NCBI RefSeq assembly: GCF_963921235.1
Contig: NC_086097.1
Span: forward strand, 9,610,001 to 9,674,000
Direction of reading: 5' to 3'
DNA: 64,000 nt
DNA from: Mobula hypostoma
Lineage: Eukaryota
Shown: positions 23,880 through 45,928 of the stretch, in pieces
Position numbering within the stretch: the stretch's first letter is position 1
How the letters are laid out: every line of letters starts with the position of its first letter
Position numbers and translations under genes: made by a program
The notes under the pieces: model-generated
Databases searched by the model: none
Seen by the model: the letters and a program-made list of their open reading frames with translations, nothing else
Told to the model about the DNA's origin: nothing

Positions 23880-25447
23880 CCTTAAGGTTGTCATAGCCAG
23901 GGTGGGTGTGGGGAGAAGCTCCCACTGCCTGTTAAATGCTCCCAATGGTGTGCATCTCAAATAGCCTCGAAAAACGAAGACCAGATCCTGGCCTTCACGA
24001 GTGATGTAGCTACTAAGCCCGGTGGAAATGTTTCTACTGACAGGACAAGGGACAAAGGCAAGTTACTGATGCCTTAAGACCATTTGCTTCAGGCGGATAG
24101 ACTCATCAGCCGCGGTTGGCTGCTCATCTTGGAGAAGGAAAATTCTGATCTAAAACCTCAGCTGTCTTGTGGCTATACCCACTCATGGGGAAGGCTTCGG
24201 GAGTAAACCCCAAGGGAAAAATCTGAAGCTGAAGTCCCTAGGCAGTCCTACATTGAGTTCAATGCTGACTGGCAACTCCTGCAATGCAGCTGGTGCTAAA
24301 CTGTGTTGATCTCTGCCATTCCATTGGATTCATCAGCTGCACGGAGAGGGGGAGCTTGCTATATGGACAAAAGCCTGCTCTCCATATCCTTCCGCTGTTG
24401 CTTGTATATCTTGTCACGTTAAAGAACCAGCGGAGATGGAAAACACTTTGGAGTCCAGTATTGCTATTAACTAATAATATTTATCAGTAACTACGCAAAT
24501 ACAGTAATATAAATGTAGATAAACCAAACAGGCTAGCAATGATTATATATAAGTCAGTGTGGAATATATACATGAAAACCAAGCTTCTTCAAGTCTAGGG
24601 GTAAATAGGCAGTCTTACGATGACAAGTAAAGTTCAGTTCAATTCATGGTTTTGAGTTGAGTAGTGATGGAGAGAGAAAGACGTAGAGATTTGAATCTTC
24701 AGGTGAGCTGGCGCTGTCGATCTTCTCGTTGTCCTCCGAAGTCCTTTAAAAGTCACCGACTGTTACCACAACAAAGGGAACCATTTTCCTGTGGTGGAGC
24801 TATCAACCCAGGCAAGGGTGGACACATGGACAACTCCCCACCAGTCAATCCCTTTTCTCACTGCAAGATCCACTGATTGATTCGCCTGATCGATCCTCCA
24901 AAATCCCACTTTTTCTGTGGGCACAACAAACCTCATTCAGTGTCGAAAAACATGTGCCTGAGGTCTATATCATCTGACCTCCTATTTATGTCACTGTACT
25001 GAGTACCAACTGTCATGCAAATAACTCCTCCTTCCTTTGGCTGTGTAAGAAATGTACAAGCAGGCAAATGTCCTTGGAAGTGTAAACACGCTGCCGAAAA
25101 ATCATAACATCGAATAACGCCACCCTCGGTCACCATAGCGACTTACGAGCTGTTCGGTACTCTCTCCGAACTCAGCAGAAATCCAAAAGTGAGTCTGTTC
25201 TTTCTCAGTCATTAAAGTGACAGTCCACAGGAAATATGAACCTTAGGGGTTCATAACACCATCTCAAAGCAGTCTTCGTCTCTCTCTCTCACTTAAAAAC
25301 AAGTTGTTGGTGTTAAATAACTCTCTCTCTCTTTTCAAAAGTACATTTCATTGGGGTAATCGAGCATAGTTCATAGGGGTAATCCAGGACCCTGTCACAA
25401 TCTCTAGACAGCTATGATGCAGCACCCATGGTCGACCCCAACCAACA
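23880..25447 (+). mobile_element. Non-coding RTE-like retroposon split by a solo LTR
   Basis: Colinear with 31640-32245 (minus) and 26486-26680; resumes after the LTR; the RTE label is inferred. Confidence 0.6.
24412..25399. mobile_element. Solo LTR (ERV1- or Gypsy-type), 988 bp
   Basis: TGTCAC...GTCACA ends (TG...CA); 4-bp TSD atct 24408-24411 / 25400-25403. Confidence 0.75.
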
Positions 25448-26333
25448 GACAGCCTCATTCCCCCCATCCCTCCCCACTGATCTTCCTACTGGCACTTATC
25501 CTTGTAAGTGGAACAAGTGCCACACGTGCCCTTACACTTCCACCCTCACCACCATTCAGGGCCCCAGACAGTCCTTCCAGGTGAGGCGACACTTCACCTG
25601 TGAGTCAGCTGAGGTGATATACTGCGTCCGGTGCTCCCGATGTGGCCTTCTATATATTGGCGAGACCCGACGCAGACTGGGAGACCGCTTTGCTGAACAC
25701 CTACGCTCTGTCCGCCAGAGAAAGCAGGATCTCCCAGTGGCCACACATTTTAATTCCACATCCCATTCCCATTCTGACATATCTATCCACGGCCTCCTCT
25801 ACTGTAAAGATGAAGCCACACTCAGGTTGGAGGAACAACACCTTATACTCTGTCTGGGTAGCCTCCAACCTGATGGCATGAATATTGACTTCTCTAACTT
25901 CTGCTAATGCCCCACCTCCCCTTCGTACCCCATCCGTTATTTATTTATATACACACATTCTTTCTCTCACTCTCCTTTTTCTCCCTCTGTCCCTCTGACT
26001 TACCCTTGGCCATCTTCTGGGTTCTCCCCCCCTCCCCCCGTCTTTCTCCCTGGGCCTCCTGTCCCATGATCCTTTCATATCCCCTTTGCCAATCACCTGT
26101 CCAGCTCTTGGCTCCATCCCTCCCCCTCCTGTCTTCTCCTATCATTTTGGATCTCCCCCTCCCCCTCCCACTTTCAAATCTTTTACTAACTCTTCCTTCA
26201 GTTCGTCCTGACGAAGGGACTCGGCCTGAAATGTTGACTGTACCTCTTCCTAGAGATGCTGCCTGGCCTGCTGCGTTCACCAGCAACTTTGATATGTGTT
26301 GCTTGAATTTCCAGCATCTGCAGAATTCCTGTT
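25448..26333 (+). mobile_element. Penelope-like element 3' part (GIY-YIG endonuclease and terminal region)
   Basis: CKWNKCHTC...VIYCVRCSRCGLLYIGETRRRLGDRFAEH...LQPDGMN; hammerhead-like CTGACGA...GAAA at 26208-26231. Confidence 0.92.
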
Positions 26334-26729: not shown

Positions 26730-28446
26730 TAGAAAACATAGAAACATACAAAACCTACAGCACAAACAGGCCCTTCGACCCACAATGCCATGCCCAAAAT
26801 GTCCTTACTTTAGAAATTACCCAGGGTTACCCATAGCCCTCTATTTTTCTAAGCTCCAGGTATCTATCCAGCTCTCTCAAAAGACCCTATCATATCTGCC
26901 TCCACCACCTTTGGCAGCAGCCCTTTCGACGCATTCACCACTCTCTACGTAAAAAAACTTACCCTTGACATCATCTCTGAACCTACTTCCAAGCATCTTA
27001 AAACTGTACCCTCTCATGCTAGCCATTTTAGTCCTGGGAAAAAGCCTCTGACTATCCACATGATTAATGCCTCTCATCATCTTATACACCTCTATCAGTT
27101 CACCTCTCATCCTTGCTGTTCCAAGGAGAAAAGGCTGAGTTCATTCAACCTGTTCTCATAAGGCATGCTCCCCAATCCAAGCAACATCCTTGTAAATCTC
27201 TTCTGCACCCTTTCTATAGTTTCCATATCCTTCTTGTAGTGAGGTGACCAGAAATAAGTGCAGTATTCCACATGGGGTCTAATCAGTGTCCAATATAGTT
27301 GTAAGATTACCTCTCCACTCTTAAACTCAATCCCACGGTTAATGAAGGTCAATGCACTGTACGCCTTCTTAACCACACAGTCAACCTGTGCAGCAGCTTT
27401 GAGTGTCCTATGGACTCGGACCTCAAGATCCTCCACACTGCCAAGAGTCTTACCATTAATACCATATTCTGCCATCATATTTGACCTACCAAAATGAACC
27501 ACTTCACACTTATCTGGGTTGAACTCCATCTGCCACTTCTCAGCCCAGTTTTGCATCCTATCAATGTCCCACTGTAACTTCTCACAGCCCTCCACACTAT
27601 CCACAACAACCCCAACTTTTGTGTTATCAGTAAATTTACTAACCCATCCCTCCACTTCCTCATCCAGATCATTTATAAAAATCACAAAGAGTAGGCGTCC
27701 CAGAACAGATCCCTGAAGCACGCCACTGGTCACTGACCTCCAAGCAGAATATGACCCGTCTACAACCCCATGCTTCCTTACTTTCTCAATAAGCCTTACA
27801 TGGGGTACCCTATCAAATGTCTTGCTGAAATCCATATACACTACATCTACCTTCATCAACATGTTTCGTCACATCCTCAAAAAATTCAATCAGGCTCGTA
27901 AGGCACGACATGCCTTTGACAAAGCCACGCTGACTATCCATAATCATATTATGCCTCTCTAAAAGTTCATAAATCCTGCCTTTCAGGATCTTTTCCATCA
28001 ACTTACCAACCACTGAAGTAAGACTCACTGGTCTATAATTTCTCGGGCTATCTCTAGTTCCTTTCTTGAATAAGGGAACAACATCCACAACCCTCCAATC
28101 CTCCAGAACTTCTCCTGTCCCCACTGATGATGCAAAGATCATTGCCAGAGGCTCAGCAGTCCCCTCTCTCGCCTCCCATAGTAGCCTGGGGTACATCTCA
28201 TCCCGTCCCGGAGACTTATCTAACTTGATGCTTTCCAAAAGCTCCAGCACATCCTCTTTCTTAATGTCTATATGCTCAAGCTTTTCAGTTCGCTGTAAAT
28301 CATCCCTACAATTGCCAAGATCCTTTTCCATAGTGAATACCGAAGCAAAGTATTCATTAAGTATCTCTGCTATATCCTTCGGTTCCATACACACTTTTCC
28401 ACTGTCACGCTTGATTGGTCCTATTTTCTCACGTCTTATCCTCTTA
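26730..28446 (-). mobile_element. CR1 LINE fragment with RT and small internal deletions
   Basis: NYRPVSLTSVVGK, DFSKTFD and SGVLQGSVLG; same subfamily as 11866-14540. Confidence 0.92.
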
Positions 28447-28904
28447 TCTAGAGAGATATAATAATTGAGGACTTATTATGACCAAAATTAATATGTTTAA
28501 TCCAAAAAATAGGATAACACATCAGATGTAAAAGCTGATTGAATGAAGTGTGTTGAATGGAAGTTCAAGTGGATGATAAATGTTTGCTTAGACTGGGCAG
28601 ACCAGATGGGTTGTTGCAGAGTTGAAGGCTCAGCTGAAGTAATTCAATCACTTGATATGGAGAAACTCAAAGAGATTAGATGAAGAGAGGCAAAGTGTGT
28701 GTTAAAATTGGACTTGTTTGTCTGAGAGAGTTCCACAAGTAAACATAAATCCACTTCATAATCCAGATTTATCTACTCTAATTAGCATGCACCATAAAAC
28801 AATACATTCTGGATTTCCATCCGCAATACTACGGAACGGTTAGTAGCACATAAAGCACTAAAATATAATAGCAAACTTGAGAAAGTCTGCAGATGCTGGG
28901 AAGC

Positions 28905-32631: not shown

Positions 32632-34620
32632 CATATAACCATATAATAATTACAGTACAGAAACAGGCCATCTCTGCCCTTCTAGTCCGTGCCGAACTCT
32701 TACTCCCACCTAGTCCCACCGACCTGCACTCAGCCCATAACCCTCCATTCCTTTCCTGTCCATATATCTATCCAATTTAACTTTAAGTGACAACATCGAA
32801 CCTGCCTCAACCACTTCTGCTGGAAGCTCGTTCCACACAGCTACCACTCTCTGAGTAAAGAAGTTCCCCCTCATGTTACCCCTAAACTTTTGCCCCTTAA
32901 CTCTCAACTCATGTCCTCTTATTTGAATTTCTCCTACTCTCAATAGAAAAAGCCTATCCACGTCAACTCTATCTATCCCCCTCATAATTTTAAATACCTC
33001 TATCAAGTCCCCCCTCAACCTTCTACGCTCCAAAGAATAAAGACCTAACTTGTTCAACCTTTCTCTGTAACATAGGAGATGAAACCCAGGTAACATTCTA
33101 GTATATCTCCTCTGTACTCTCTCTATTTTGTTGACATCTTTCCTATAATTCAGTAACCAGAACTGTACACAATACTCCAAATTTGGCCTCACCAATGCTT
33201 GTACGATTTTAACATTACATCCTAACTCCTTTACTCAATGCTCTGATTTATAAAAGTCAGCATACCAAAAGCTTTCTTCACCATCCTATCCACATGAGAT
33301 TCCACCTTCAGAGAACTATGCATCATTATTCCTAGATCCCTCTGTTCTACAGCATTCCTCAATGCCCTACCATTTACCATGTATGTCCCATTTTGATTAG
33401 TCCTACCAAAATGTAGCACCTCACATTTATCAACATTAAACTCCATCTGCCATCTTTCAGCCCACTCTTATAACTGCTGAAATCTCTCTGCAAGCTTTGA
33501 AAACCTATTCCATTATCCACAACGCCACCTTATCTTAGTATCATCTGCATACTTACTAATCCAGTTTACCACCCCATCATCCAGATCATTAATGTATATG
33601 ACAAACAACACTGGACTTAGTACAGATCCCTGAGGCACACCACTAGTCACCGGCCTCCAATCTGACAAACAGTTATCCACCACTACTCTCTGGCATCTCC
33701 TATCCAGCCACTGTTGAATCCATTTTACTACTTCAATATTAATACCAAATGATTGAACCTTCCTAACCAACCTTCCGTGTAGAACCTTGTCAAAGGCCTT
33801 ACTGAAGTCCATATGGAAAACATCCACTGCTTTACCCTCGTCAATTTTCCTAGTAACCTCTTCAAAAAATTCAATAAGATTTGTCAAACATGACCTTCCA
33901 CGCACAAATCCATGTCGACTATTCCTAATCAGACCCTGTCTATCCAGATAATTATATATACCATCTCTAAGAATGCTTTCCATTAATTTACCCACCACTG
34001 ACATCAAACTTACAGGCCGATAATTGCTAGGTTTACTCTTAGAACCCTTTTTAAACAATGGAACCACATGAGCAGTATGCCAGTCCTCTGGCACCATCCC
34101 CGTTTCTAATGACATTTGAAATATTTCTGTCAGAGCCCCTGCTATTTCCACACTTACTTCCCTCAAGGTCCTAGGGAATATCCTGTCAGGACCCAGAGAC
34201 TTATCCACTTTTATATTCCTTAAAAGTGCCAGTACTTCTGCTTCTTTAATCATCATAGTTTCCATAACTACCCTACTTGTTTCCCCTACCTTACACAATT
34301 CAATATCCTTCTCCTTAGTGAATACCGAAGAAAAGAAATTGTTCAAAATCTCCCCCATCTCTTTTGGTTCCACATATAGCTGTCCACTCTGATTCTTTAA
34401 GGGACCAATTTAATCCCTCACTATCCTTTTGCTATTATTATAACTGTAGAAACCCTTTAGATTTATTTTCACCTTACTTGCCAAAGCAACCTCATATCTT
34501 CTTTTAGCTGTTCTAATTTCTTTCTTAAGATTTGTTTTACATTCCTTATATTCCTCGAGCAACTCATTTTCTCCAAGCTGCCTATATTTATTGTAGATCT
34601 CTCTCTTTTTCCGAACCAAG
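32632..34620 (-). mobile_element. CR1 LINE (RT) inserted in an old PLE pyrimidine-rich tail
   Basis: 286-aa RT ORF 33513-34373 and C-terminal ORFs; close paralogue of 5287-7270. Confidence 0.94.
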
Positions 34621-42244: not shown

Positions 42245-43499
42245 CAACACACATCAAAGTTGCTGGTGAACGCAGCAGGCCAAGCAGCATCTATAGGAAG
42301 AGGCGCAGTCGACGTTTCAGGCCGAGACCCTTCGTCAGGACTAACTGAAGGAAGAGTGAGTAAGGGATTTGAAAGTTGGAGGGGGAGGGGGAGATGCAAA
42401 ATGATAGGAGAAGACAGGAGGGGGAGGGATAGAGCCGAGAGCTGGACAGGTGATAGGCAAAAGGGGATACGAGAGGATCATGGGACAGGAGGTCCGGGAA
42501 GAAAGACAGGGGGCGGGGGGTGACCCAGAGGATGGGCAAGAGGTATATTCAGAGGGACAGAGGGAGAAAAAGGAGAGTGAGAGAAAGAATGTGTGCATAA
42601 AAATGAGTAACAGATGGGGTACGAGGGGGAGGTGGGGCCTAGCGGAAGTTAGAGAAGTCAATGTTCATGCCATCAGGTTGGAGGCTACCCAGACGGAATA
42701 TAAGGTGTTGTTCCTCCAACCTGAGTGTGGCTTCATCTTTACAGTAGAGGAGACCGTGGATAGACATGTCAGAATGGGAATGGGATGTGGAATTAAAATG
42801 TGTGGCCACTGGGAGATCCTGCTTTCTCTGGCGGACAGAGCGTAGATGTTCAGCAAAGCGGTCTCCCAGTCTGCGTCGGGTCTCACCAATATATAAAAGG
42901 CCACATCGGGAGCACCGGACGCAGTATATCACCCCAGTCGACTCACAGGGGAAGTGATGCCTCACCTGGAAGGACTGTTTGGGGCCCTGAATGGTGATAA
43001 GGGAGGAAGTGTAAGGGCATGTGTAGCACTTGTTCCGCTTACACGGATAAGTGCCAGGAGGGAGATCAGTGGGGAGGGATGGGGGGGACGAATGGACAAG
43101 GGAGTTGTGTAGGGAGCGATCCCTGCGGAATGCAGAGAGAGGGGGGGAGGGAAAGATGTGCTTAGTGGTGGGATCCCGTTGGAGGTGGCGGAAGTTACGG
43201 AGAATAATATGTTGGACCCGGAGGCTGGTGGGGTGGTAGGTGAGGACCAGGGGAATCCTATTCCTAGTTGGGTGGTGGGAGGATGGAGTGAGAGCAGATG
43301 TACGTGAAATGGGGGAGATGCGTTTAAGAGCAGAGTTGATAGTGGAGGAAGGGAAGCCCCTTTCTTTAAAAAATGAAGATATCTCCCTCGTCCTAGAATG
43401 AAAAGCCTCATCCTGAGAGCAGATGCGGCGGAGACGGAGGAATTGCGAGAAGGGGATGGCGTTTTTGCAAGAGACAGGGTGAGAAGAGGAATAGTCCAG
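42245..43499 (-). mobile_element. Penelope-like element, 5'-truncated (RT C-terminal region, GIY-YIG, terminal region)
   Basis: IPFSQFLRLRRICS...ERGFP; VIYCVRCSRCGLLYIGETRRRL; 10-bp TSD atggttactg 42235-42244 / 43500-43509. Confidence 0.94.
42306..42343 (-). ncRNA. Minimal type I hammerhead ribozyme motif with intact core
   Basis: tagtc-CTGACGA-AGG gtctcgg CCT-GAAA-CG-TC-gactg; palindromic ACGT in place of stem III. Confidence 0.75.
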
Positions 43500-43965
43500 A
43501 TGGTTACTGGCTGCCTATTTCCCCTTCCCTCTCCTGACAGTCACCCAGTTACATATCTCTTGACAATTAAAGGTGACTACTTCCTTGTAGCTCCTATCTA
43601 TCACCTCCTCAGTTTCCCATACGAACCAAAGGTAGCTGAGCTTCAGTTTCTTATCATGGTCTCTCAGAAGCTGCAGCTTGGGGTACTTCATGCAGATGTA
43701 GTTATCAGGGAGACAGGAGGTCTCCCAAGGTTCTCACATCTCACACAATGGACATACCACCAACACTGCGCCCATTTTCAGTTCTCAGTTGACTAGGTAT
43801 GTACTAACAAAAAAAAACTTACTAGAAATTAGTCTGCATCTGTAGTTGCCCAAGCTTGTTCTCACCTAAGCCTGTTTAGCCAAAGCAGGAAACTCTAACA
43901 CTGCCCTATTCCAAAAATGGCAGCTCCATCAAAGATGAATAAACAACTTTTGGTGACCAGCTTGT

Positions 43966-44537
43966 TGGTTGGTTGGTTGGTTGTCCATTGTTGACATCGA
44001 TGAGGACCTCGACCCCATTATGATGGTGTCAAGACTAGCGCATGATTTGGATTTAAGTGAGGGAGAGTTGCGCAGCATCAGCCTCACTCTCTCTTCCCAA
44101 TTCCCATCTGGGTCCAGTGGCAAGACAGAGTCTAGACAGCTGGAGATGGGACTAGGCGCAGTGGATGACCGGGACATCTTCTGTGTCTTGTCCTGCTCTA
44201 CACGTTCCACGACGCTTGCAGAGACTGCCTTCTTGACCGTTGGACCTTCCATAGGTCTCGTCCGCTCAATCTGCTGGAGTCGGTCTTCACATGCTGGGAT
44301 AGACAACTCCCTATCTCACCGAGGGTTTGAGACTCGTCGGCTACCCTCACCTGGTTTAGCCGGCTTGTCGAAGCCGTTGCCCGGGGTGTGGCCGCTGTCG
44401 CATGCAAACAGCTACGGGGAGCCACAGGTGAGAGCTGAGTGCCAGGTGGGGACCAAAGGTGGACTAACCGCCCTGAAAAGAACGCGACATGTTCCCCCAC
44501 CAGAGGTGCTACCCCTCCCTGACAGCCCATACACCCC
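43966..44537 (-). mobile_element. Non-coding retroposon (RTE-like, inferred) with (CAAC)n tail
   Basis: TSD cagcttgt 43958-43965 / 44538-44545; microsatellite tail; CpG-rich, so probably young; no tRNA head. Confidence 0.8.
44344..44537 (-). ncRNA. HDV-like self-cleaving ribozyme (predicted by hand)
   Basis: P1 GGGGTGT/ACACCCC; P2 CTCTCACCTG/CAGGTGAGGG; P3 GGC/GCC; L3 TCCCCGTA plus hairpin; GG-GCAA; P4 CGGCTT/AAGCCG; J4/2 GCTAA. Confidence 0.75.
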
Positions 44538-44649
44538 CAGCTTGTACTGCATCAATGTTAGCTGATCAATTTTTTTGATCTTTAAAAATTAATCTACAAA
44601 CCGACAACTTTCATTCACTGAAGTACTTGAAATATCACCCTGGTCTTTA

Positions 44650-45450
44650 GAACGTAGAGACGTAGAACACAGAAAATCTACAGCACAATGCAGGCCCTTC
44701 GGTCAACAAAGCTGTGCCGAACATGTCCTTAACTTAGAACAACCTAGGCTTAGTGATAGCCCTCTACTTTTCTAAGCCCCATGTACCTGTCCAGGAGTCT
44801 CTTAAAAGACCCTATCATTTCCGCCTCCACCACCGCCGCTGGTAGCCCATTCCACACACTCACCACTCTCTTACCCCTGACATCTCCTCTGTACCTACTT
44901 CTAAGCACCTTTAAACTATGCCATCTCGTGCTAGCCATTTCAACCCTGGGAAAAAACTGACTATCCACATGATCAATACCTCTCATTATTTTGCACACCT
45001 CTATCAGGTCACAACTCATCCTTCGTTGCTCCAAGGAGAAAAGGCCGAGTTCACTCAACCTATTCTCATAAGTCATGCTCCTCAATCCAGGTAACATCCT
45101 TGTAAATCTCCTCTGCACCCTTTCTATGGTTTCCACATCCTTCCTGTAGTGAGGCAACCAAAACTGAGCACAGTACTCCAAGCGGGGTCTGACCAAGGTC
45201 CTATATAGTTGCAACATTACCTCTCGGCTCTTAAACTTAATCCTCCGGTTAATGAAGGCCAATGCACCGTATGCCTTCTTAACCACAGAGTCAACCTGTA
45301 TAACAGCCTTGAGTGTCCTATGGACTTGGACCTCAAGATCCCTCTGATCCTCCACACTACCAAGAGTTTTACCTTTAATGCTAAATTCTGCCATTATATT
45401 TGACCTACCAAAATGAACCACCTCACACTTATCTGGGTTGAACTCCATCT
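44650..45450 (-). mobile_element. CR1 3' fragment
   Basis: 242-aa ORF with LVRPRLEYCAQFW and DLIEVCKIMRG. Confidence 0.92.
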
Positions 45451-45928
45451 TCCACGGTGTCACGGTGTCATGTGGCATTATTATGCTACATGAGGACTAG
45501 AAAATAATCTTTTCTGTCAGGAGAGAATAACCCACCTTCCTTGATATTCTGTGGAATTGCCATCACCAAATCACTACGATCAATACAACCATAGCATAAA
45601 TTTTCATGAAAGCTAATCAGACCAGCTATTTTGGCTATAAGAGAAAACGAGAGAGTGTAGATCCTGCAATAATAATTTCTGACTCTCCAAGACATTTTAA
45701 ACATTCTCAAGAAACAGGGCTGAAGTATGATCGAATATGATACACGGTACGCCATATTTAGTTTAACTTCAATGATATCAAAAAGCTCCACAACTTCCAT
45801 GGAAAAATATGTGTCTAACAGTCTTCTTAATTGGCATCCCATATGCCATTCTAAAAATTTAATTTCTCTATCACCAGGACATAATGGCAGCAATAAGCAT
45901 TTTCTCAACATGCACTGGGGCGACTCAC

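Follow-up and report, generated by a model that had tools for sequence, protein, structure and literature searches.

The window analysed here, a 64,000-nucleotide stretch of Mobula hypostoma DNA (contig NC_086097.1, positions 9,610,001 to 9,674,000), carries on its minus strand a 572-bp insert (43966..44537) that is probably a non-autonomous, non-coding retroposon that lacks long terminal repeats (non-LTR), headed by a ribozyme of the hepatitis delta virus (HDV) type that descended from the 5' ribozyme of an RTE-like long interspersed element (LINE). An HDV-like ribozyme at this 5' end had been proposed from the letters of the window alone (the original prediction), and the proposal is supported by element boundaries that fall at the first G of helix P1 (G1), by compensatory changes in helices P1, P2 and P4, and by invariant core residues. 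As far as comparative sequence data can, the four lineages described below show RNA-level selection on P1, P2, P4 and the catalytic-core residues, continuing after an additional hairpin was gained in loop L3. We infer that the head probably cleaves itself out of a co-transcript and that a LINE probably mobilises the released element.

The element and its 5' boundary

Direct reading of the minus strand bears out the 572-bp insert, its 8-bp target-site duplication (TSD) and its (CAAC)n tail, which reads CAACCAACCAACCAACCA. In a direct-repeat search across the insertion the TSD becomes 9 nt if the first G of the element is counted. The 1-nt ambiguity originally noted at the TSD boundary is real and wider than was thought: it amounts to 1-4 nt, because the direct repeat begins with ACAA, as the tail does.

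A search with the insert returned 4125 first-look candidates in the 3.48-Gb, 200-contig assembly, and all 40 scored matches (95-100% identity) were nearly full length; we refer to these copies as family A. Junctions were studied in 30 fetched loci, which are biased to full length because the best-scoring matches were taken. An exact direct repeat of 6-13 nt spans the insertion in 27 of the 30, the flanks are unrelated, and the tails, made of (CAAC)n or (CAA)n, vary in length. The first 7 nt match fully in 18 copies and mismatches are confined to nt 1-2 or absent in 23; the remaining copies lack up to 7 nt at the 5' end. Mean majority-base frequency in these copies is 0.42 over the 20 nt upstream and 1.00 at nt 8-27, and when 39 copies of family B and 20 of family C (two sister families introduced below) are added, the corresponding values are 0.41-0.42 and 0.84-1.00. 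Homology starts at G1 of P1 in all three short families and in a related LINE, and none of the copies fetched from these four lineages extends upstream of G1, so that 5' ends pile up at this base as the original prediction expected.

Most family A copies contain a 190-codon antisense open frame across the whole element (window 43957-44565, plus strand), and a 116-codon sense frame reads into the tail without a stop (window 43929-44315, minus strand). Neither has a Pfam match, and stops occur in every frame of the family B consensus and of one family C copy; for both reasons we rejected these frames as coding and judged family A non-coding. Together with the TSDs, the tails and the thousands of copies, the loss of the frames in the sister families upholds the description of the insert as a member of a non-coding retroposon family.

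The search for an RNA polymerase III (Pol III)-type head was likewise negative, as had been predicted. ARAGORN reported no tRNA-like gene in 43800-44700, Rfam no match to a tRNA-, 7SL- or 5S-like head, and no A or B box is common to the families; a B-box-like candidate of family A, GGTTAGTCC, is not kept in B or C. Judged by its sequence, the element would therefore not be a short interspersed element (SINE) in the strict sense, which is defined by a Pol III-type head.

Parts of the proposed ribozyme head

The head occupies element nt 1-194 (~195 nt) and has the nested double pseudoknot layout of HDV-like ribozymes. All the proposed parts, namely the helices P1, P2, P3, P1.1 and P4, the loop L3 and the joining strands J1/2 and J4/2, were recovered by direct reading at positions that agree with the proposal (Table 2). 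C44359 would be the catalytic residue, to judge by its position in J4/2. The U, CC and G of L3 stand at the counterparts of HDV positions U20, C21-C22 and G25. This G and U would form the reverse-wobble pair that is conserved in HDV-like ribozymes and whose loss abolished cleavage in a wasp R2 ribozyme (PMC3774820).

J1/2 contains two conserved blocks, GGAGGGGTAGCACCTCT and TTGGTCCCCACC, that all three short families retain and that can still be recognised in the LINE. Single-sequence folds predict that J1/2 forms a separate domain. The 5' strand of P1 is duplicated, with a second GGGGUGU inside J1/2 at element nt 10-16 (nt 1-16 span window 44522-44537). The arrangement is GGGGTGT-AT-GGGGTGT in A and B and GGGGTGC-AT-GGGGTGC in C, both copies having changed together. 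In single-sequence folds the second GGGGUGU pairs with bases just before P2, and the duplicated strand may provide an alternative fold or a switch. A further competing stem, TGTGGC/GCCACA, had been raised as a caveat. We rejected it: only 4 bp are possible in the LINE, and position 150 covaries with position 6 in P1, not with 113.

Two older sister families and a LINE with a homologous putative ribozyme

Contigs of four public runs, compared over this region, contained a related form, mainly over element nt 77-199, with different P4 and L3 letters. A pattern requiring both partners of one P4 pair to be changed matched 29 places in the assembly (0 for the reversed-pattern control), among which we met two older families, B and C. 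Family B is ~537 bp long and gave 6706 first-look candidates, its copies matching the query at 80-84% identity; family C gave 4650 first-look candidates, with copies 83-96% identical. Both are homologous to A over the first ~380-510 nt at 68-77% identity, and their 3' ends resemble that of A: CAAC-like repeats come after a small terminal hairpin whose last letters are GATGGAC. The 118 heads that we collected sort as 46 A, 50 B and 22 C.

Some copies of these families show features of their own. Two independent family B copies (L043 and L059) are broken at ~nt 215-230 by the same unrelated repeat, starting AGATTAGATTATGAGGACAC, at sites no more than ~10 nt apart; either this repeat has a target preference or the two belong to a chimeric subfamily. 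Family C has a tRNA B-box-like motif, GAGTTCGATCC, towards its 3' part (nt ~505-560 in copy L034), and several family C copies have a ~50-nt variable piece ahead of a conserved 78-nt end.

A pattern made of the 3' end of the core and, after it, five positions that all had to differ from the short families gave 7 matches, one of which (L119) runs into an open reading frame (ORF). The 5' region of L119 returned 823 first-look candidates, and 34 of the 39 non-self scored matches share the query start, with 2 more beginning one base further in. The true start of the LINE lies 47 nt further upstream, at GGGGTAT, and is preceded by unrelated flanks in 20 fetched 5' ends; all 20 begin at GGGGTAT or without its first 1-3 nt. 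One copy, bracketed by a diverged direct repeat, spans ~3.35 kb between this start and a (CAAGG)n tail and contains RVT_1 matches (Pfam, E 3.3e-11 and 7.4e-07). Its length, the layout with a single ORF and motifs at the N- and C-termini suggest that the LINE is RTE-like; Pfam confirmed the reverse transcriptase (RT) only. For the endonuclease, the broken ORF pieces had no Pfam match and a PDB sequence search found none; Atlas gave a weak lead to Exo_endo_phos (0.86-0.87).

The relationship between this LINE and the short elements is seen in the ribozyme. Comparison by blastn aligns the core only (44-48 nt, 79-89% identity). A covariance model built from 16 short-family cores, using nested helices only, recovers all 42 sources, that is 21 short-element loci at 99-124 bits and 21 of 21 LINE loci at 31-51 bits. 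The suggestion that an autonomous LINE might share both ends with the element therefore holds in part, as there is an RT-bearing LINE with a homologous 5' ribozyme core, the 3' end of which is not shared. Three further patterns for another partner LINE, all of low sensitivity, had 0 matches in the assembly: two with the family A 3' domain behind foreign upstream context, and one for a hairpin-less ribozyme with the P1 and P2 of the short families.

L119 and three other places on the same contig (C5) form a small LINE subgroup with CAGGTGAGGG as P2 3' strand but CTCTCACGTC as P2 5' strand. This subgroup lacks the first 47 nt of the head and is a variant that has decayed or been 5'-truncated.

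The hairpin in L3

In the short families 28 nt separate the P3 strands, including a 6-bp hairpin, so that these heads do not have a closed L3 of 7-8 nt. The LINE has a plain 7-nt loop (GGC-UCCAAGC-GCC). In the covariance-model alignment all 21 short-element rows have the 19-nt hairpin and all 21 LINE rows lack it, the gap in the LINE being clean. Since L3 is canonical, at 7 nt, in the homologous ribozyme of the LINE, we read the hairpin as an insertion common to the three short families, which confirms the extra hairpin of the original prediction. Equivalently, it can be described as an extension of P3 that makes L3 an internal loop of 8 nt and 1 nt. Between family consensuses 18-19 of its 19 nt are identical, and all of its cells are paired.

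Covariation and selection

Table 1. Ribozyme parts in the consensus of each lineage (RNA letters).
Part	Family A	Family B	Family C	LINE
P1	GGGGUGU/ACACCCC	GGGGUGU/ACACCCC	GGGGUGC/ACACCCC (last pair lost)	GGGGUAU/AUACCCC
P2	CUCUCACCUG/CAGGUGAGGG	CUCUCACCUG/CAGGUGAGGG	CUCUCACCUG/CAGGUGAGGG	CUCUCACGUG/CACGUGAGGG
P3	GGC/GCC	GGC/GCC	GGC/GCC	GGC/GCC
L3	UCCCCGUA + hairpin + G	UCCAAGUA + hairpin + G	UCCUCGUA + hairpin + G	UCCAAGC, no hairpin
P1.1	GG	GG	GG	GG
J1/4	GCAA	UACA	GCAA	UAAA
P4	CGGCUU/AAGCCG	CCGCUU/AGGCGG	CGGCUU/AGGCCG	CCGCU/GGCGG
J4/2	GCUAAAC	GCUAAAC	GCUAAAC	GCUAAAC

The four lineages differ in several helices and agree in the residues of the putative active site (Table 1). J1/2 is 96-100 nt long in all of them. 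Their L3 reads UCC-CC-G (A), UCC-AA-G (B), UCC-UC-G (C) and UCC-AA-G (LINE), with variation at the two middle positions alone; the L3 U, CC and G, the GG of P1.1 and the GCUAAAC of J4/2 are fixed throughout, and J1/4 is variable. No role is assigned to the positions of L3 and J1/4 that vary. The pairings and the position of the candidate catalytic C are thus kept in the consensus, as they should be on the ribozyme reading. The GGGCAAC that had been likened to genomic HDV is present in the window copy and is not a conserved feature, since J1/4 is UACA in B and UAAA in the LINE.

Pairing was counted on the covariance-model alignment (42 cores, 41 distinct rows, 27 pairs including P1.1) for all helices but P1. 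In this alignment 94.1% of 976 cells are paired, as against 29.7-49.0% when the partner is slid by 1-3 columns. Five pairs are changed on both sides, a number reached by 30 of 500 shuffles; none of the 500 shuffles reaches the observed covariation score or the count of double-changed cells. P2 is paired in 96.8% of cells, and at its pair 12/100 20 rows have C-G, 15 have G-C and 4 have G-U, a difference between short families and LINE that corresponds to the consensus change from ..CACCUG/CAGGUG.. to ..CACGUG/CACGUG... For the P4 pair 76/89 the rows divide into 18 with C-G, 8 with G-C, 6 with U-G and 3 with U-A; by consensus this pair is G-C in A and C and C-G in B and the LINE (CGGC../..GCCG vs CCGC../..GCGG).

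P1 was counted on a MAFFT alignment of 73 heads (20 A, 25 B, 8 C and 20 LINE) whose match to the family A consensus head reaches nt 1-2. This alignment was used for P1 only, because MAFFT alone misaligned P2, P3 and L3 of the LINE against the short families. Heads with shorter 5' matches (13 A, 18 B, 14 C), those in excess of the per-family limits (13 A, 6 B) and a split copy, L049, were left out. P1 (nt 1-7 with 149-155) is paired in 88.4% of 498 cells, as against 30.8-61.8% when slid, and at its pair 6 G-C stands in 45 rows and A-U in the 18 others that carry a changed pair, again a difference between short families and LINE. The covariation that had been anticipated for P1-P4 is accordingly found between lineages in P1, P2 and P4, with P3 conserved without it.

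A fourth event was rejected as independent decay. The P4 pair 163/176 is A-U in 13 family A copies, but both changes are CpG decays, these copies do not group cleanly as a subfamily, and G-C is retained elsewhere by members of the enriched older subgroup.

Divergence points in the same direction. The core (nt 104-194) is identical between family consensuses at 82-89 of 91 positions (90-98%), J1/2 at 66-78 of 97-98 and the 41 nt downstream at 28-35 of 42-44 (flanks 64-80%). Single copies have decayed in core and J1/2 by 2.5 vs 4.8% in A, 11.4 vs 13.3% in B and 4.9 vs 5.2% in C, where the core figures are lowered by the choice of some A, B and C rows with an exact core pattern. Since copies have decayed about equally in core and J1/2, it was in the source elements that the core was protected, and a low mutation rate is not the reason. 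LINE-like states persist in family B (L3 AA, P4 C-G, J1/4 UA.A), from which it follows that the P4 flip and the change of L3 AA to CC or UC in A and C arose in hairpin-bearing lineages. These changes left the critical residues untouched, which suggests that the constraint lasted after insertion of the hairpin.

Weighing the ribozyme reading

Several observations count against the ribozyme reading or limit the support for it. Rfam has no HDV-type match, at gathering score or at E up to 10, in the window region or in five LINE heads, and the matches it does report there are non-HDV ones at chance level, or none. The minimum free energy (MFE) of the 200-nt head is no better than that of shuffles (z = 0.14). 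The second GGGGUGY (nt 10-16) can pair with the 3' strand of P1 and so create a competing fold; the descriptor described below used it where nt 1-7 are damaged. In family C, C7 lies opposite A149, which leaves a P1 of only 6 bp, and G1 pairs with C, not with U as in the G-U wobble of HDV. P3 (95.9% paired), P1.1 (C-G in 38 of 39 and 34 of 40 cells with letters) and the L3 hairpin are conserved only, without lineage-level covariation. The covariation itself comes from few independent events in four lineages of related copies, most rows are top-scoring or pattern-selected copies, and the covariance-model alignment is fitted to the structure of the model, which leans the counts toward that structure. 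A hairpin inside L3 has no known precedent, and it might weaken or abolish catalysis. As for mobilisation by the LINE, its 3' end aligns with that of the short element no better than shuffles do (419 of 500 and 155 of 500 score as high), and the tails differ, being (CAAGG)n in the LINE and (CAAC)n in the short element.

Some of these points lose weight on inspection. Rfam silence is expected with a J1/2 of 96-100 nt and models without pseudoknots. The original prediction held that standard descriptors would miss the element because of the L3 insert; Rfam does miss the head, but it also misses the LINE, which has no insert, so that a J1/2 of ~100 nt suffices as explanation. MFE stability is uninformative here because the fold is a pseudoknot, and P2 and P4 are present in both the MFE and the centroid structure of the 200-nt head.

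The alternative that survives best is also the one raised by the hairpin, namely that the head is a ribozyme fossil. The insertion would have killed or crippled cleavage, G1 would be a transcription start, and the fold would have persisted because it does something else, for instance protecting the 5' end, binding the mobilising protein or localising the RNA. We consider this unlikely. The residues of catalysis and the active site (L3 U, CC and G; P1.1 GG; J4/2 C followed by UAA) are fixed in three families that are 20-36% diverged elsewhere in the head, even though the hairpin does break up the catalytic loop and the LINE version lacks it. That the 5' strand of P1 is the first 7 nt in every lineage is predicted by a cleavage product and not by a start site; nor was a tRNA-, 7SL- or 5S-like head found, although the J1/2 blocks conserved across lineages could be promoter or protein-binding elements. 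A second function is conceivable in itself, in that the double-pseudoknot fold is reported to give cap-like protection from 5' exonucleases in R2-based templates (PMC13708176).

A promoter-driven SINE, in which transcription from G1 would depend on an internal promoter (Pol II or Pol III) within nt 8-103 and the pairings would be incidental to a structured leader, is more doubtful still. Thousands of copies do suggest efficient expression, but compensatory changes in three helices point to an RNA structure and not to a DNA motif, and the ARAGORN and Rfam results and the loss of the B-box-like candidate in B and C argue the same way. Promoter and ribozyme could also coexist, as in L1Tc/NARTc, where an internal promoter and a ribozyme are joined in the same 77 nt (PMC3383444), which makes this only partly a rival.

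Chance resemblance, that is, a GC-rich retroposon head that happens to permit HDV-like pairings, is hardly credible despite the z score and the silence of Rfam, given the homologous core at the 5' end of an RT-bearing LINE, the lineage-level covariation and a descriptor false-positive rate of ~2 per 617 kb. This rate comes from a relaxed HDV descriptor (J1/2 up to 250 nt, L3 7-30 nt) that found, over 617,294 bases on both strands, the heads of intact copies and only 2 other places; it measures the background rate only, because it was written to fit the window element.

We therefore return to the HDV-like ribozyme as the preferred reading. No promoter can be recognised in the element itself, which would be transcribed inside longer host or neighbouring transcripts. 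Its head would fold and cleave just 5' of G1 (window 44537), releasing an RNA that begins at the first base of the element and whose compact fold would serve as a protected 5' end. A LINE reverse transcriptase would recognise the 3' hairpin and the (CAAC)n tail, and target-primed reverse transcription into a new site would leave the 6-13-bp target duplications. The hairpin in L3 would then be tolerated or useful.

A broader proposal is that the hairpin-in-L3 form is an active, unrecognised HDV-like subclass, with P3 lengthened by a coaxial helix and an internal loop of 8 nt and 1 nt in place of the catalytic loop, and that in vertebrates such portable, promoter-independent heads can be joined to the 3' ends of other LINEs to give SINE-like families of many thousands of copies, missed by SINE classifiers and ribozyme descriptors alike. 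We see the chances of this as evenly balanced.

Relation to known ribozymes and retroposons

Ribozyme-headed non-autonomous elements are already known. The RTE, R4 and L1 (L1Tc) ribozymes cleave at the exact 5' end of the element (PMC3774820), RTE and Baggins elements have HDV-like ribozymes and no promoters and are read through (PMC6765202), and some non-autonomous SINEs use hammerhead or HDV-like ribozymes (PMC6765202). The size-variable regions named in the R2 ribozyme work are J1/2 and L4 (PMC3774820, figure 3 legend). The window head is like these LINE 5' ribozymes (RTE, R4/Dong, R2, L1Tc, Baggins) in its nested double pseudoknot, its P1 at the first base, its long variable J1/2 and, as proposed here, its release from a co-transcript by a promoter-less element. 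It differs in that the element has no ORF, carries a 19-nt L3 hairpin and has a 3' end unrelated to that of the LINE found.

The closest documented carriers are non-autonomous ones, the R2 short internally deleted elements (SIDEs) and NARTc (PMC3414825; PMC3185411; PMC3383444). SIDEs of Drosophila consist of a ribozyme and a 3' end, in some cases the 3' end of a different LINE (PMC3414825). R2 SIDEs and the R2/R1 hybrid SIDEs resemble the window element in being short, not Pol III driven, and composed of a LINE 5' ribozyme and a LINE-recognised 3' end; in the hybrids the two come from different LINEs, as seems true here, and R2 SIDEs are likewise old lineages with ribozymes evolving under constraint (PMC3414825). 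As described in that paper, R2 SIDEs are site-specific in ribosomal DNA, present in low copy and processed from the 28S co-transcript, whereas the superfamily of the window element is dispersed genome-wide in a chordate, with variable targets, thousands of copies per family, a ~350-nt body common to three families and a modified L3. Compared with a SIDE, the 5' end of the window element is homologous to a LINE 5' ribozyme of the same genome, and its 3' end is not homologous to that of the LINE found. NARTc and L1Tc of trypanosomatids have a minimal 77-nt ribozyme, Pr77-L1TcRz, that doubles as internal promoter (PMC3185411, PMC3383444), unlike the ~195-nt window head with its large J1/2 and L3 hairpin. 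The Sm-alpha hammerhead of schistosomes and the twister variants in S. mansoni non-LTR elements also place a self-cleaving RNA at the head of a short retroposon, but the ribozymes are of another class, and the SINEs are reported as Pol III transcribed and working from tandem copies (PMC6765202, PMC8501958).

Genomic HDV and CPEB3 share with the window head a P1 of 7 bp, a P3 of 3 bp, L3 U-C-C-N-N-G, a 2-bp P1.1 with GG and a J4/2 C-N-A-A before P2; the window head differs from them in an L3 of 28 nt with a hairpin, where they have a closed loop of 7-8 nt, and in its J1/2 of 96 nt. The UCCUCG of L3 in family C is the same as in genomic HDV.

Our literature search found no paper on an L3 insertion or on a dispersed vertebrate family of this kind, which is weak evidence, as most subscription papers lie outside the search. 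What is new here is the dispersed high-copy form with an L3/P3 extension; the strategy itself is known, and this is a variant of it both structurally and in its genomic setting. Were the head to cleave, it would mean that HDV-like ribozymes accept an inserted helix in L3, the one region of fixed size in search descriptors, and a class of them may have been missed for this reason. Such an element would add a high-copy, dispersed chordate case to the few retroposons that use a ribozyme in place of a Pol III promoter. Its expression would then depend on host read-through transcription, and thousands of self-cleaving sites in introns and untranslated regions could cut host transcripts. The LINE with a canonical L3 and the three hairpin families form a natural set on L3 geometry and catalysis. 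Without cleavage, the head would still clearly exemplify a ribozyme fold that was kept for a second role.

Features of the insert and its surroundings

Table 2. Features of the insert in the window (strand - throughout; letters are those of the minus strand).
Feature	Position	Strand	Basis or remark
Retroposon, family A of a putatively ribozyme-headed SINE/SIDE-like superfamily	43966..44537	-	40/40 scored genome matches; junctions, 30 copies; TSDs, 27/30
TSD, 5' copy, ACAAGCTG	44538..44545	-	identical 8-mer after tail
TSD, 3' copy, ACAAGCTG	43958..43965	-	direct reading
P1 5' strand GGGGUGU; G at 44537 = first element base, predicted +1 of cleavage	44531..44537	-	P1 pairing counts
J1/2, 96 nt, with conserved blocks	44435..44530	-	family alignments
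P2 5' strand CTCTCACCTG (RNA: CUCUCACCUG)	44425..44434	-	10 bp; structure-aware alignment
P3 5' strand GGC	44421..44423	-	95.9% of cells paired
L3 core TCCCCGTA (RNA: UCCCCGUA)	44413..44420	-	UCC-NN-G across lineages
19-nt hairpin GCUGUU-UGCAUGC-GACAGC, 3' side of L3	44394..44412	-	structure-aware alignment
P3 3' strand GCC	44390..44392	-	structure-aware alignment
P1 3' strand ACACCCC	44383..44389	-	P1 pairing counts
P1.1 GG, pairs with CC at 44419-44418	44381..44382	-	invariant at consensus level
P4 hairpin CGGCUU-CGAC-AAGCCG	44361..44376	-	structure-aware alignment
J4/2 GCUAAAC; candidate catalytic C at 44359	44354..44360	-	same in all four lineage consensuses
P2 3' strand CAGGTGAGGG (RNA: CAGGUGAGGG)	44344..44353	-	structure-aware alignment
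Two stem-loops just 3' of the ribozyme (element nt ~197-243)	44296..44341	-	read off consensus alignment
3' domain: long hairpin, small terminal hairpin ending GATGGAC, (CAAC)n tail	43966..44033	-	3' ends of families A and B

The two stem-loops that follow the ribozyme lie outside the HDV fold and are kept in A, B and C, with differences that appear compensatory by eye: CCGA/UCGG in A, CCGG/CCGG in B and CCAA/UUGG in C. In the 3' domain, the long hairpin of the family A consensus is CTCGACACCAT-CATA-ATGGTGTCGAG (a self-complementary match at consensus nt 505-530), from which the window copy differs by two changes.

Fragments of CR1/L2-like LINE ORFs are numerous in the window (44750-45496 on the minus strand, 226-975, 27107-28472, 32710-34409 and others). 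One LINE protein from the window has mostly chordate neighbours in Atlas. The fragment at 44750-45496 shares its strand with the insert and ends, ~60 nt upstream of the latter, in a (TGAA)-like tail, so that the insert landed just past the 3' end of this LINE. Fragments of a GIY-YIG endonuclease, which look like remains of Penelope-like elements, occur at 25383-25907 (+) and at 42639-43514 (-), the latter (Pfam E 1.5e-4) ~450 nt downstream of the insert and on the same strand.

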